A DNA stretch of 30,410 nt from Myxococcaceae bacterium (GTDB taxonomy: Bacteria; Myxococcota; Myxococcia; Myxococcales; Myxococcaceae), in NCBI GenBank assembly GCA_036389955.1, contig DASVVJ010000282.1, positions 1 through 30,410 on the forward strand. Direction: 5' to 3'. A program made the position numbers and the translations under genes. Position 1 is the first letter of the stretch. Every line of letters begins with the position of its first letter. Under the pieces are notes generated by a model. That model made no database searches. It saw nothing but the letters and a program-made list of their open reading frames with translations, and was not told the origin of the DNA. Of the stretch, positions 3,759-8,199 are shown one piece after another.

Positions 3759-5528
3759 TCACTTCTGCGCCGGCGCAGCCCCGGCGGAGGCCTCCGCTGG
3801 CGACTCCACCTTGAAACCCGCGCGCTCGAGCATGGCGCGCATCTCGCTGCGGGCCACGGACTTGTTGAGCGCCTCGATCGGTTGAACCAGCTTTTTCTTG
3901 GCCAGATCCAACAGCGCGTCGTTGAGCATCATCATTCCGTGCCCGCGCGAGGTCTGCATCACCGAGGGAATCTGGAACGTCTTGCCCTCACGGATGAGGT
4001 TGGACACCGAGCTGGTGCACAGGAGCACCTCCTGCGCCGCCACGCGCCCACCACCGATCTTCTTGCACAGCGTCTGGGAGATGACGCCCTTGAGCGACTC
4101 GGAGAGCATCATGCGGATCTGCGCCTGACGGTCCGCCGGGAACTGGTCGATGATGCGGTCCACCGTGGAGGCCGCCGTGTTGGTGTGCAGCGTGCCGAAC
4201 ACCAGGTGCCCCGTCTCCGCCGTCTCGATGGCGATGGCGATCGTCTCCAGGTCTCGCATTTCTCCCACCAGCACCACGTCCGGATCCTCGCGCAGCGCCG
4301 CGCGCAGCGCGTCCTTGAAGGAGTCGGTGTGGACGCCAATCTCGCGCTGGTTCACCAGGCACTTCTTGTTCGGGTGAACGAACTCGATGGGGTCCTCGAT
4401 GGTGATGATGTGGTCTTCACGATGGCGGTTGATGTAGTCGACCATCGACGCCAGCGTGGTGGACTTGCCCGAGCCGGTGGGACCGGTGACGAGCACCAGC
4501 CCCTTGGTGAGGAAGCACAGGTCCAGAATCTGCTTGGACAGCCCCATCTCCTCCGCGCTGCGGATGGTGTTGGGAATCTGCCGCAGCACGGCGCCAATGC
4601 CCTTGCGGTCGGCGAAGACGTTGACGCGGAAGCGCGCCGCCGGCGTCTCGTAGGCGAAGTCCGTGTCGCGCTTTTTCTCCCACTGCTGCTTGTTCTTCTC
4701 CGGAGCGATGCTGAAGACCATTTCCTTGAGGCGCGGGGGCGAAACCACGCCGAACTCCGTCATGGGGACCATGTCTCCATCGATGCGCAGGTGCGGCACC
4801 GTATCGCTGGACATATGAAGGTCCGAGGCACGGCGGGCCAGCATCGTCTCCAGCAGCGAGAGCATCTGCGCCGCGGACTCGCTCTGCTGCGCCAGGTCTG
4901 CGCCCGGCGAGACGGACGGCGCCGGCTCCGGCGGGGCGGCGGGTACCGCCGGGGGCGCCGCGGGAGGCGGAGGGGCCGGAGCGGTTGCCTTCTCCACCGG
5001 CTTGGGGGCGGGTTGCGCGGCGGGAGCCATGACGGGCGGCCGGGTCGGCGTTACCGCCGGAGCGGGGCGCGGTGCCGCCGCGGCCGGAGCCGCCGCTGGA
5101 GCAGCCGCCGGAGCCTGAGGGGCACTCGCCACGGTGCTCTGGGCCATCCCCAACATGTCGGCGGGAGAGGCCAGCTCGAGCTTCTCTCCCGAGTCCTCGA
5201 ACTCGAACGTGCCATACATGGCATGCGGGGCGAAGGGCACCATCGACACCCGCGCATGTTGCTGGTCCATCTCGAACTTCACCTGGACCGCGCCTCCGGG
5301 AGAGGCATAGGGAAAGATGGTGGTCCCCGGGGCCGGGAAGGTCGCCCGTTGATCCGAAGGCACCAGCTCCGCGACCGCTCCGATGATCTGCTGGGTGGTG
5401 AGGTTCTGCTTCAGTACCGGCACGATCCCCGAGGTGGTGCGGATGCTCACGCCCCCACCGGTCTCCATGAGGATTTCCAGACCAGAGTCCTTGAGAAGCT
5501 TCTCGATGATGTAGTCAATCCTGGCCAT
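3759..5528 (-). CDS. PilT-family type IV pilus retraction ATPase paralogue. It has an extra ~100-aa N-terminal domain and a ~70-aa Pro/Ala-rich linker ahead of the canonical PilT core.
   Basis: Walker A 'GPTGSGKSTT', Asp box, Walker B 'DVVLVGEMRD', His box 'TLHTN' and the PilT-specific 'NLIREGK' motif are all present. The ATG at 5526-5528 lies 4 nt after the upstream gene's TGA (TGACATCATGG), indicating coupling. The track's TTG at 5579 would overlap the upstream gene and is judged less likely. Confidence 0.85.
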   Translation of the reverse strand: MARIDYIIEKLLKDSGLEILMETGGGVSIRTTSGIVPVLKQNLTTQQIIGAVAELVPSDQRATFPAPGTTIFPYASPGGAVQVKFEMDQQHARVSMVPFAPHAMYGTFEFEDSGEKLELASPADMLGMAQSTVASAPQAPAAAPAAAPAAAAPRPAPAVTPTRPPVMAPAAQPAPKPVEKATAPAPPPPAAPPAVPAAPPEPAPSVSPGADLAQQSESAAQMLSLLETMLARRASDLHMSSDTVPHLRIDGDMVPMTEFGVVSPPRLKEMVFSIAPEKNKQQWEKKRDTDFAYETPAARFRVNVFADRKGIGAVLRQIPNTIRSAEEMGLSKQILDLCFLTKGLVLVTGPTGSGKSTTLASMVDYINRHREDHIITIEDPIEFVHPNKKCLVNQREIGVHTDSFKDALRAALREDPDVVLVGEMRDLETIAIAIETAETGHLVFGTLHTNTAASTVDRIIDQFPADRQAQIRMMLSESLKGVISQTLCKKIGGGRVAAQEVLLCTSSVSNLIREGKTFQIPSVMQTSRGHGMMMLNDALLDLAKKKLVQPIEALNKSVARSEMRAMLERAGFKVESPAEASAGAAPAQK

Positions 5529-5532
5529 GATG

Positions 5533-6003
5533 TCAGCGCGAGAGGGGTTCCACGGAGGAGATGTAGCGTTTATTGACAAGCGCTATGCGCTTGCCCTGGA
5601 CGAGACGAATGAACGGCGGTGTGTCGTTGAGATAGTCGTTGAGCCGGGTCCGGCCCTCGGGCTGCATGTAGACGATGAGCCCTTGCAGCCGCTGGCCATT
5701 CACCAGCCGGAGCTGCACTTCGTGCTCCGTCAGGATGGTGAGGCGATCCTCTTCGCGGAACTCGTGATCGACGTCGGTCTGCGCCACCACGATGGCGGCA
5801 CTGTTGAGGAAGGTGATCATCCCCGTGGCCACGTCTTGAGCGGGAATGAATTTCATCTCTCCGTTGAGTAGGTCCGACAGCCGCTCACCCTCAGTGTACT
5901 CGGGGACCCCGGTCATGAGGAACACGGAGACCTCCCGGGCCTCACCCTCGGGAGAGGAGATCTGAGCAAGCACACGGCGTTTGGGAACGCGAAACTCTTC
6001 CAC
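5533..6003 (-). CDS. Hypothetical 156-aa protein translationally coupled upstream of the PilT-like ATPase. It is a possible regulatory partner.
   Basis: GTG start at 6003 is preceded by the SD AAGGAAG with an 8-nt spacer, and the in-frame upstream stop is 16 codons away. I recognise no family. Its codon usage ends in A/T more often than neighbouring genes. Confidence 0.6.
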   Translation of the reverse strand: MEEFRVPKRRVLAQISSPEGEAREVSVFLMTGVPEYTEGERLSDLLNGEMKFIPAQDVATGMITFLNSAAIVVAQTDVDHEFREEDRLTILTEHEVQLRLVNGQRLQGLIVYMQPEGRTRLNDYLNDTPPFIRLVQGKRIALVNKRYISSVEPLSR

Positions 6004-6204
6004 GGGAGCTGCTTCCTTGGTCGTAACGAGGGGGTCTGCGCCGGAATCCTACTGGCAGTGGTGCTCCCGCACCAAGGCCCAGCTCCGTGGCGGGCTACCC
6101 GTCAGGCCAGGTCGAGGCACGGGCCCTTTCCGGGCTGAATTTCTCTCCAAGGGTCTCGTCTGCGGGAGCCGTTGCTCGGATTTTCACCCTTAATGAGGAT
6201 CTCC

Positions 6205-6975
6205 ATGAACATCTCGAAGCGTCAGTACCTTGGCATGCTCTCCTTGTCGTTCGGTCTGGTCGTCACCGGCTGTGGAGGAGAGACTCCGGGCGAATCCCCG
6301 GACCCCCCTGCGCCCCCTGCGCCCCCTGCGCCCCCTGCGCCCCCTCCGCCCCAGGGAGGGACGGGCAACAACTCGGGAATCGCCGTGGTCTGCGGCGAGG
6401 AGACCTGTGTTGCGCCGGGAGATGCCTACACGAGCCACTTCACCGGGCCGAACTGCGATGGTGAGGAGTACTACTACACACCCTACTTCTCTGGGACGAC
6501 CGACCCGAATCCGGACCAAATCATCCGGCCGTGGGACGGCAAGGGCATGGCCGGCACGGAGCTGCGCACCGTGATGGTGCGCTCGGTCCGAGACGCCATG
6601 GGCACCTGCCTGGTGAACCAGTGGCCCGACGGCAACACGCTGAGCAACTTCGTGCGCGTCTATCGCGAGGCCAACCCCTACGCGCTCTGCGGCGAGGACA
6701 GCTGCAAGTACCCCAGGGGCCGGTACTACAGCCACTTCACCGGGCCGAACTGCGATGGCGAGGAGTACTACTACACGCCCTACTTCTCTGGGACGAACGA
6801 CCCGAATAAGGACGGGATCATCCGCTCGTGGGATGGCAAGGGCCTGGCGGGAACACAGCTCGCCTCGGCCAACACCCGCTCGTCTCGTGACAGCAGCGGC
6901 CACTGCAACGCCAACCAGTGGCCTGCCGGCAACCCGCTCACCAACATGGTGCGCATCTACCGCACCACCCGCTAG
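6205..6975 (+). CDS. Secreted lipoprotein of 256 aa made of a Pro/Ala linker and two tandem ~99-aa Cys-containing repeats of unknown family.
   Basis: ATG at 6205 follows the SD GAGGA with a 5-nt spacer. Signal peptide MNISKRQYLGMLSLSFGLVVTG|C has a lipobox. The repeats share C-GE-x2-C ... YxSHFTGPNCDGEEYYYTPYFSGTxDPNxDxIIRxWDGKGxAGTxL ... NQWPxGNxLxNxVRxYR. Confidence 0.8.
   Translation: MNISKRQYLGMLSLSFGLVVTGCGGETPGESPDPPAPPAPPAPPAPPPPQGGTGNNSGIAVVCGEETCVAPGDAYTSHFTGPNCDGEEYYYTPYFSGTTDPNPDQIIRPWDGKGMAGTELRTVMVRSVRDAMGTCLVNQWPDGNTLSNFVRVYREANPYALCGEDSCKYPRGRYYSHFTGPNCDGEEYYYTPYFSGTNDPNKDGIIRSWDGKGLAGTQLASANTRSSRDSSGHCNANQWPAGNPLTNMVRIYRTTR
6304..6348 (+). repeat. 9-bp tandem microsatellite (CCCCCTGCG)x4 plus one degenerate copy, encoding (PAP)n.
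   Basis: Read directly from the sequence. It lies inside the lipoprotein linker and is an in-frame 9-bp unit, so it is a candidate slippage-prone tract. Confidence 0.8.
6391..6972 (+). repeat. Two tandem ~297-bp DNA repeat units encoding the duplicated protein domain.
   Basis: AGCCACTTCACCGGGCCGAACTGCGATGG(T/C)GAGGAGTACTACTACAC(A/G)CCCTACTTCTCTGGGACGA occurs at 6433 and again at 6730, which is 297 bp apart and about 95% identical. Confidence 0.8.
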
Positions 6976-7086
6976 AGCGCCGAACAGGTCAGGTCACGCC
7001 GCGCAGGTAGCGCGTGGCGACCTCAAGGTTTTGGACGACCGCGAGTCGCCTGAGGTCAAAGAGGTTGCGGCGGGTGCCTTGATAAC

Positions 7087-7100
7087 GGGCCTTCGGGCCC
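7087..7100. terminator. GGGCC-TTCG-GGCCC hairpin with a UUCG-type tetraloop in the convergent intergenic region. It is a candidate terminator for either flanking gene.
   Basis: Read directly from the sequence. It sits between the convergent stops at 6975 and 7196. Confidence 0.3.
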
Positions 7101-7195
7101 TGGCGGTTGGCTAGCCTGGCTCCAAGACGGCAAGGGCCACGGGAGAAGCCCACAGCCCGCAGTCCCCTCCAGGCCAGCCCCTGCCTGCCGCTTTA

Positions 7196-8023
7196 CTACG
7201 CGCCGAGCACCTGCTTGGCGCGAGCGTAATAGGCCTCGCGGGCGGCCAGTCCGTTGAACCCGCCGTTGATGCGGCGGGTGATCTCCCGGAAGTTGCCCTG
7301 ATCCGCGTAGCTGTTCAGGTTGCGGCTGTTCCAGAACCACGCGGCGGTGCGGAAGCCCACGTCCACGTCCGCCGCGCGCCGGGGGTTGCCCTCCAGATCG
7401 ATGCCCAGGGCCTTGCCCGCCGCCCGGTAATTGGCGCGGCCCGTGAGCTGAATGGGCCCGCGGCCCTTGTAGCGCACGCCGTCACCCGGATGAATGTTGC
7501 CCAGGTCCTTGCGGCCCTCGTACGCCGCACCCGAGGCGAGCTCCTCGAAGTAGCGGAACTCGGCGCTCTCGTGCGCCAGCTGCGCCAGGAACGCTGCCTG
7601 CCGCTTCGGGGTGTTGATGCCCGCTTCGACCATTGCCTTGTTGAGGTGCGGCAGCACCTCGTTGGCCCTCGCCGTCGACAGGTGCGGCATGATCTGCCGC
7701 AGCTGCTGCACCGAGACCCCACCCTTCACCGGGCCCGGATCCGTGGGCCGGGTCGGCGCGGCAGCCAGCGCGGCCCACGTCCGGGGCCCCACCACGCCAT
7801 CCGCGCCCAGGCCCTTGGCGCGCTGGAAGGATTTCACCGCCGCCGTGGTCTTCGGGCCGAAGTCCCCATCCGCGGCGCCCGGGCTGAAGCCGGCCGCGGC
7901 CAGCTTGCGCTGGAGGTCCACCACCTGGGGACCGCGAGCGCCTTCCCTCAGGGTGGGCGGCGCGAGGGCCGCCGTCGCGGCCAGAGGAGCAGTGGTAGGG
8001 CGTACAGTCGAGGCGGAAAGCAT
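7196..8023 (-). CDS. Secreted peptidoglycan-binding protein with a C-terminal GH19 chitinase/lysozyme-like domain.
   Basis: PG_binding_1-like 'VKSFQRAKGLGADGVVGPRTWAAL' and GH19 catalytic-region motifs 'AAFLAQLAHESAEFRYFEE...YKGRGPIQLTGRANY...FWN' are present. ATG at 8023 (MLSASTVRPTTAPLAATAALA) is chosen because the longer track ORF would overlap the upstream gene. Tandem stop TAG-TAA. Confidence 0.75.
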   Translation of the reverse strand: MLSASTVRPTTAPLAATAALAPPTLREGARGPQVVDLQRKLAAAGFSPGAADGDFGPKTTAAVKSFQRAKGLGADGVVGPRTWAALAAAPTRPTDPGPVKGGVSVQQLRQIMPHLSTARANEVLPHLNKAMVEAGINTPKRQAAFLAQLAHESAEFRYFEELASGAAYEGRKDLGNIHPGDGVRYKGRGPIQLTGRANYRAAGKALGIDLEGNPRRAADVDVGFRTAAWFWNSRNLNSYADQGNFREITRRINGGFNGLAAREAYYARAKQVLGA

Positions 8024-8199
8024 GGCAAGGGATCCAGTTCTCAGGAAATGAGCTGAATGCCCCGTTATCGTGTGCGCCCCTGTGGGAGTTGCGCAGACAT
8101 CTAAAAAGAGGGCCCCAAAGGGAACCCGGGCCGCAGCCACGGAGCCGGGGTCACTCCCAGACGCCCCCCTGCCAGCGCAGGCCCTGCCCGCAGAGGCGA

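Follow-up and report, generated by a model that had tools for sequence, protein, structure and literature searches.

What is the role of a small predicted lipoprotein whose mature part consists of a proline-rich segment and two copies of a domain absent from the family libraries? The question is raised by a plus-strand gene at 6205-6975 of contig DASVVJ010000282.1 from a Myxococcaceae bacterium (assembly GCA_036389955.1); the 30,410 nucleotides of this contig analysed here are called the window. With moderate confidence, we propose that the product is a lipid-anchored tandem binding module borne on a proline-rich stalk, a prediction that draws largely on the architectures of the domain family to which both copies belong. 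Four other readings (a crystallin-like protein, a protease accessory, a toxin and a sorting tag) are weighed below where the evidence touches them, and each of them appears less likely than a tandem binding module. The parts of the gene are listed below. E-values of the two domain copies refer to an 89-position hidden Markov model (HMM) of a single domain, and the values for the microsatellite come from Tandem Repeats Finder (TRF).

6195..6199, plus strand: Shine-Dalgarno-like GAGGA, read from the sequence, 5 nt 5' of the ATG at 6205
6205..6975, plus strand: coding sequence, from the open reading frame (ORF) list and the sequence, 256 aa and then a TAG stop at 6973-6975
6205..6273, plus strand: signal peptide and lipobox, MNISKRQYLGMLSLSFGLVVTG and then C, with Cys23 as the predicted lipidated residue
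6274..6384, plus strand: proline-rich linker, aa 24-60 (37 aa), GGETPGESPDPPAPPAPPAPPAPPPPQGGTGNNSGIA, probably disordered
6304..6352, plus strand: 9-bp microsatellite, (CCCCCTGCG) in 5.4 copies, coding for (PPA)n (TRF score 91, 97% matches, 0 indels)
6385..6672, plus strand: domain copy 1, aa 61-156, matching HMM positions 2-88 of 89 (E 2e-42)
6433..6510, plus strand: high-identity core of copy 1, SHFTGPNCDGEEYYYTPYFSGTTDPN, 96% identical to 6730-6807
6682..6969, plus strand: domain copy 2, aa 160-255 (E 2e-41), the copy used for modelling
6730..6807, plus strand: high-identity core of copy 2, 96% identical to 6433-6510, a putative gene-conversion tract

The leader MNISKRQYLGMLSLSFGLVVTGC carries K5 and R6, a hydrophobic core and then V-T-G-C23. 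This is the layout by which lipoproteins were recognised here, namely a positive N-terminus, a hydrophobic core and a lipobox of the form [LVI][ASTVI][GAS]C within the first ~35 residues, and lipidation at Cys23 is predicted from it. Five homologues share the leader and lipobox layout (P0050, P0003, P0008, P0027 and P0034). The nearest of them, P0050, is a protein of 232 aa encoded on a 10.9-Mb contig; it aligns with the window protein end to end from Met1 with 48% identity, and its leader MNVVSRRVVGLLSLSLGLLGTVGCGGEE corresponds residue for residue to that of the window protein. The ATG at 6205 is therefore supported as the start both by the ribosome-binding site 5' of it and by this alignment, leader included. 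The initial annotation had already called the product a lipoprotein, and the signal peptide with its VTGC lipobox, together with the conserved leader of P0050, bears this out. A scan of 5900-7300 for promoters and terminators returned nothing above chance.

The Joint Genome Institute (JGI) gene call for the same locus (P0001, metagenome 3300034028) starts at GTG 6385, without leader and linker. This call (L001 1989-2579) drops the signal peptide, the lipobox and the linker, and annotation-based searches would consequently overlook the lipoprotein nature of the product. The JGI contig (L001) shows 0 mismatches with the window over 12,579 nt and is therefore no independent copy of the locus.

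Neither the whole protein, compared with Pfam-A, NCBIfam and the PDB sequences, nor a 104-sequence domain profile, compared with the PDB, gave a match, and the 104 domain sequences identified no relevant family in Pfam. DUF3558 (E 0.11) and DUF1138 (E>=0.007) appeared in the domain searches and were rejected as noise. A full-text literature search for the domain sequence motifs found no paper. These negative sequence and profile searches agree with the earlier statement that the repeated motif lies outside the recognised families. Homologues do exist: a word-indexed search of 5.8e9 clusters retrieved 26 proteins, and an exhaustive HMMER search of 1.84e9 representatives (clusters at 50% identity) with a two-domain profile retrieved 135 at E<=1e-3, 108 of them at E<=1e-10. 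Among GTDB genomes there are 22 loci, all in metagenome-assembled genomes and with a best identity of 55%, which fall into four phyla: Acidobacteriota, Actinomycetota (Jatrophihabitans, Micromonosporaceae), Gemmatimonadota (Longimicrobium) and Myxococcota. As judged by sequence comparison, the domain is a true but rare family, absent from every library searched. Three eukaryotic receptor tyrosine phosphatases with fn3 arrays (P0108, P0120 and P0155), which matched the two-domain profile at E about 1e-18 over 10 stretches, were set aside: the single-domain HMM does not match them, and the hits look like an artefact in which one periodic repeat array was matched to another.

Conservation within the family centres on cysteines and aromatic residues. 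The consensus of the ~90-aa domain reads CGExxC...SHFTG...C.G.E.YYTPYF...RSWDG.G..GT...S...G.C...WP.GNTL..FV.IYR. In domain-2 numbering, C3, C8, C24 and C75 are conserved at 91-100%; other highly conserved positions are E5, S17, H18, G26, E28, W50, G54, G57, S67, G73, Y93 and R94, and F19, Y30, Y31, Y34 and W80 are conserved aromatics. Most domains carry 4 or 6 cysteines, and the extra ones occur only as co-occurring pairs (47+56 in 14/14 cases, -1/1+55 in 15/15). Strict pairing of this kind marks disulfides in a protein outside the cytoplasm, and disulfides are accordingly predicted for the domain.

An AlphaFold2 model of the whole protein, based on 13 sequences, reached a pLDDT (predicted local distance difference test) of 61 and was too poor to use. 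For a single domain (6682-6972, alignment of 104 sequences), an all-beta model was obtained with pLDDT 96.2 and a predicted template modelling score (pTM) of 0.88, all five models being at or above 92.7. Foldseek placed nothing from the PDB at E<1 (the best matches were beta-crystallins, at E 1.3 and a template modelling score, TM, of 0.34) and nothing from BFVD at E<1 either. No known family of carbohydrate-binding modules (CBMs) or lectins was matched in Pfam or NCBIfam, and the sole lectin in the fold searches was galectin-1 (Foldseek E 8.7). The modelled fold may be new, or it may derive very remotely from a Greek key.

The beta-crystallins at the head of the Foldseek list suggest another reading, in which the product would be a very divergent betagamma-crystallin-type protein, i.e. 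a structural or coat component stabilised by Ca2+, as is Protein S of Myxococcus, rather than a ligand-binding module. Protein S consists of two domains in ~170 aa. Sequence comparisons point away from this relationship. Pfam Crystall gave no hit at E<=10 with the whole protein nor at E<=1 with the 104 domain sequences. When a small crystallin profile (domains of Protein S, gammaD, gammaB and betaB2, of which only the Protein S sequence was verified, as 100% identical to 1PRR) was compared with the family, HHalign returned a probability of 0.3%; the two halves of the domain, aligned with each other, gave 0.6%. On these two HHalign comparisons membership was rejected at the sequence level. The crystallin motif pair [YFW]xxxx[YF]xG is not present as such: W50-x4-L55-x-G57 has the right spacing with Leu replacing the second aromatic residue, and in the first hairpin, Y15-x3-F19-x-G21, the spacing lacks one residue. 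Neither copy contains the Ca2+ motif N/D-N/D-x-x-S/T-S of the microbial members, nor does the family consensus. That the domain belongs to the crystallin superfamily is not established, and we consider a crystallin-like coat protein improbable. An EF-hand-like reading of the DPNKDG loop was also downgraded, because loop position 1 is not conserved in the subfamily.

The architectures of the family provide the principal argument for a binding function. The single-domain HMM detects the full domain in 114 proteins, once in 65, twice in 43, three times in 5 and four times in 1. In 86 of the 114, no more than 8 residues separate the end of the last copy from the C-terminus, and 66 of these proteins end exactly in V/I-Y-R. 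The first copy directly follows the leader in 44. Stand-alone forms, in which the domain makes up the entire mature protein, number 25, and about 9 of these have a lipobox like that of the window protein. The partner domains listed here cover the 25 top Pfam families over 62 members and the results for 30 members scanned singly. Proteases dominate among the identifiable partners: S1 trypsin-like proteases (P0005, P0010, P0030, P0039, P0066), S8 subtilases (P0035, P0036) and an M12 metalloprotease (P0031). A PIG-L de-N-acetylase is fused to the domain in three proteins. The other partners comprise PGAP1-like alpha/beta-hydrolases, LVIVD and Kelch propellers with Ig-like domains (LVIVD+Big_7), Vps62-like, PKD and HEAT domains, and MYXO-CTERM. 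In P0045, a Ser/Thr kinase is followed by a transmembrane segment and then by a pair of domains as its outer part, a layout that suggests a role as sensor ectodomain for which the domain can be used.

The frequent C-terminal position, with its exact V/I-Y-R end, is also what might be expected of a secretion or sorting signal comparable to the C-terminal domains of the type IX secretion system (T9SS). However, such a signal would occur as a single copy at the extreme C-terminus and be restricted to lineages possessing the secretion system, and the domain behaves otherwise: tandem arrays of 2-4 copies, the proteins in which it directly follows the leader and those of which it forms the entire mature part do not fit, nor does its presence in monoderm Actinomycetota. 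The window protein, which matches no NCBIfam sorting domain, is already sorted by its lipobox. Such a sorting function is scarcely credible.

The abundance of proteases and the C-terminal placement of the domain, which recalls the PPC and P-domains of secreted proteases, would suit a protease-associated accessory acting as intramolecular chaperone, pro-domain-like inhibitor or substrate anchor; a stand-alone lipoprotein would then be a tethered partner or inhibitor of a protease. However, the domain is also joined to many non-proteases (PIG-L, alpha/beta-hydrolase, kinase, propellers, PKD, HEAT), and no protease gene adjoins the window gene or the four homologues checked. We regard an accessory role of this kind as very unlikely.

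Around these four homologues no conserved gene neighbourhood was found, and the protein therefore appears to act as a self-contained unit. This bears as well on a further reading, a small disulfide-rich antimicrobial or toxin-like effector of a predatory soil bacterium, in the manner of the crystallin-like killer toxins. Such toxins are known from yeast and Streptomyces. The domain is secreted, small and Cys-rich, occurs in Myxococcota and Actinomycetota, accompanies Vps62-like domains in some proteins and bears a weak resemblance to the crystallin fold. Nevertheless, no immunity-like neighbour gene is conserved among the four homologues, the window protein is predicted to be lipid-anchored and not released, and the domain is a promiscuous appended module found even as a kinase ectodomain. 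A toxin is, if anything, a shade less probable than a protease accessory.

Ligand binding remains the most likely role, since in other soil bacteria the family behaves as a mobile extracytoplasmic module attached to secreted proteases, deacetylases and lipase-like hydrolases, to propeller and Ig-like proteins and to the exterior of a kinase. These architectures fit the suggestion of the initial annotation that the product is a secreted or binding factor, although the binding function, like the ligand, is something we infer. In the proposed mechanism, the protein would be exported and lipidated at Cys23, and a flexible proline-rich stalk of about 37 residues would keep the two domains off the membrane. 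The domains, two compact, all-beta and disulfide-stabilised units of ~90 aa, would bind a ligand and thereby tether or sense an extracellular or cell-envelope polymer, the two sites providing avidity. Two observations count against a binding module: the fold searches gave no structural neighbour with a known binding function, and no glycoside hydrolase occurs among the listed partner domains, which is unusual for a carbohydrate-binding module.

How the two copies arose is a separate matter. The initial annotation had described two tandem, Cys-containing units of ~99 aa spaced by 297 nt, with ~95% identity over a core of about 80 bp, and both points stand: the units recur at a distance of exactly 297 nt, and the longest stretch with >=95% identity between the units is 78 nt long, at 96%. 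Both units match the family HMM at E about 1e-41, so that the repeat is far beyond chance. The recent in-frame duplication proposed to explain it did not hold. Over their whole length the units share 72.5% of their nucleotides and about 65% of their amino acids, and the two-domain layout is widespread in the family. P0050 is collinear with the window protein (leader, domain 1, domain 2), and the motif C[KS]YP[RQ]GR stands at the start of domain 2 in both proteins (CKYPRGR in the window protein, CSYPQGR in P0050) and in domain 1 of neither. This collinearity and the shared domain-2-specific motif suggest that the two-domain state is older than the split between the window protein and P0050. In a neighbour-joining tree, domain 1 of the window protein groups with its domain 2 all the same.

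The identity between the units is unevenly distributed. It amounts to 88% for the pair 6433-6563 / 6730-6860 and to 72-83% for the flanking pieces. Inside the 78-nt core, 25 codons encode the same residue in both units; 23 of these are identical, where local codon usage predicts 14 (P=3e-5). Beyond the core the count is 23 of 35 (P=0.064), and the excess differs between core and flanks (Fisher P=0.017). A mosaic of this type is what intragenic gene conversion yields, and later homogenisation therefore fits better than a young duplication. There is thus moderate support, from the sequence pattern, for an old duplication whose 78-nt core was homogenised later, probably by intragenic gene conversion. 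Speaking against this scenario, it draws on one distant homologue and on statistics that are modest, the Fisher value included. In many family members the domains of one protein resemble each other more than those of other proteins (98% in P0029 and 92% in P0027, for example), which makes repeated duplication or concerted evolution look typical of this family.

The proline-rich linker has a history of its own. In the model of the whole protein, most of aa 1-60 has a pLDDT below 50, with the exception of aa 30-44, where the block 31-40 averages 70. The (PAP)n-coding 9-bp repeat noted previously was recovered here, and the CCCCCTGCG tract proved to be the top-scoring tandem repeat of the whole 30-kb window. 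It is missing from P0050. The rare codon CCT recurs in every 9-bp unit, though the G+C content at third codon positions (GC3) of the gene is 86%. This reuse of a rare codon points to a young slippage product that would have lengthened the stalk in frame. Owing to the tract, the spacing between the lipid Cys and the first domain Cys (39 aa) is the longest among lipoprotein members, the others having 10-26 aa. Since a 9-bp unit keeps the frame, slippage could tune only the length of the stalk and could not provide an expression switch. For a comparison of repeat lengths, the genome collection contained no relative above 55% identity, and a scan of metagenome contigs matched the leader region only. 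Together, core homogenisation and a young in-frame microsatellite amount to small, textbook-style repeat dynamics and no new phenomena.

The genes surrounding the lipoprotein gene in the window are the following.

3759-5579, minus strand: PilT/T2SSE-type ATPase with an N-terminal extension of ~230 aa
5533-6003, minus strand: gene of the DUF6812 family, upstream of the PilT-like gene
7196-8302, minus strand: PG_binding_1 and GH19-like (lysozyme/chitinase) gene, convergent with the lipoprotein gene
8200-9891, minus strand: flavin amine oxidase, flanking the Major Vault Protein (MVP) homologue
9928-12216, minus strand: MVP homologue of 762 aa (Pfam MVP_shoulder 2.9e-45, Vault_2 1.5e-32, Vault 5.5e-31, Vault_3 1.4e-21)
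12379-13899, minus strand: Rce1-like CAAX protease, flanking the MVP homologue

The lipoprotein gene, on the plus strand, is divergent from the operon of the PilT-like gene and its partner (minus-strand 3759-5579 and 5533-6003), as had been stated before. These two genes overlap by 47 nt when taken as longest ORFs; on its identical contig, JGI likewise gives the DUF6812 gene a length of 156 aa. The extension of the PilT-like protein includes an Ala/Pro-rich tract partly encoded by a 12-bp repeat at 5077-5115. The product of 7196-8302 is a probable cell-wall hydrolase, judging by its domains; the JGI call gives it 242 aa against 368 aa for the longest ORF. Bacterial homologues of MVP have already been reported (bioRxiv 10.1101/872010).

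Together with the PIG-L fusions and the kinase-sensor fusion, the adjacent PG_binding_1/GH19-like gene prompts the guess that the ligand is a polymer containing N-acetylglucosamine (GlcNAc), e.g. peptidoglycan or chitin. A broader proposal would see in the domain a new fold locked by disulfides and derived at most distantly from the Greek-key/betagamma-crystallin type, which serves soil bacteria of four phyla as a general extracytoplasmic ligand-recognition module (for cell-wall/GlcNAc polymers, for instance), including a kinase sensor and a surface lectin on a stalk of variable length. We hold this wider proposal to be doubtful, though it is less improbable than a crystallin-like coat protein.

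If the binding reading is correct, the lipoprotein belongs to a family of extracytoplasmic domains not described before, which could merit its own Pfam/DUF entry and has a confident predicted structure and no solved relative. The family would also help to trace how, in the little-studied Acidobacteriota, Gemmatimonadota, Myxococcota and Actinomycetota, substrates or signals are reached by secreted proteases, by deacetylases and by one receptor kinase. With two domains and nothing else attached, the window gene is its minimal representative and would be convenient for biochemistry. The kind of biology expected of such a lipoprotein is unsurprising, and the find is a modest one.

Several known systems invite comparison. 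One is the betagamma-crystallin superfamily discussed above, exemplified by Protein S of Myxococcus xanthus, clostrillin and spherulin 3a. Like the in-frame coding microsatellites found in linkers of surface proteins, the 9-bp tract is a near-perfect short repeat inside a proline-rich linker with a unit that is a multiple of three. It shares the near-perfect short coding repeat with on/off contingency loci but, unlike theirs, its unit is divisible by three and it cannot switch expression. The domain pair of P0045 occupies, after kinase and transmembrane segment, the same position as the PASTA repeats of PknB-type kinases, although this is a single example and fold and sequence are unrelated. 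A further parallel is with the CBMs and the PPC, PKD and P-domains of secreted enzymes. The window-type domain differs in matching none of these in sequence or fold, in having no glycoside-hydrolase partner among the listed domains and in its predicted dependence on disulfides. However, it is likewise a small mobile beta-module, usually C-terminal and present in one to several copies on extracytoplasmic hydrolases. It thus shares the architectural niche of microbial crystallin, CBM and PPC modules, and its stand-alone tandem versions, such as the one in the window, resemble lectins.
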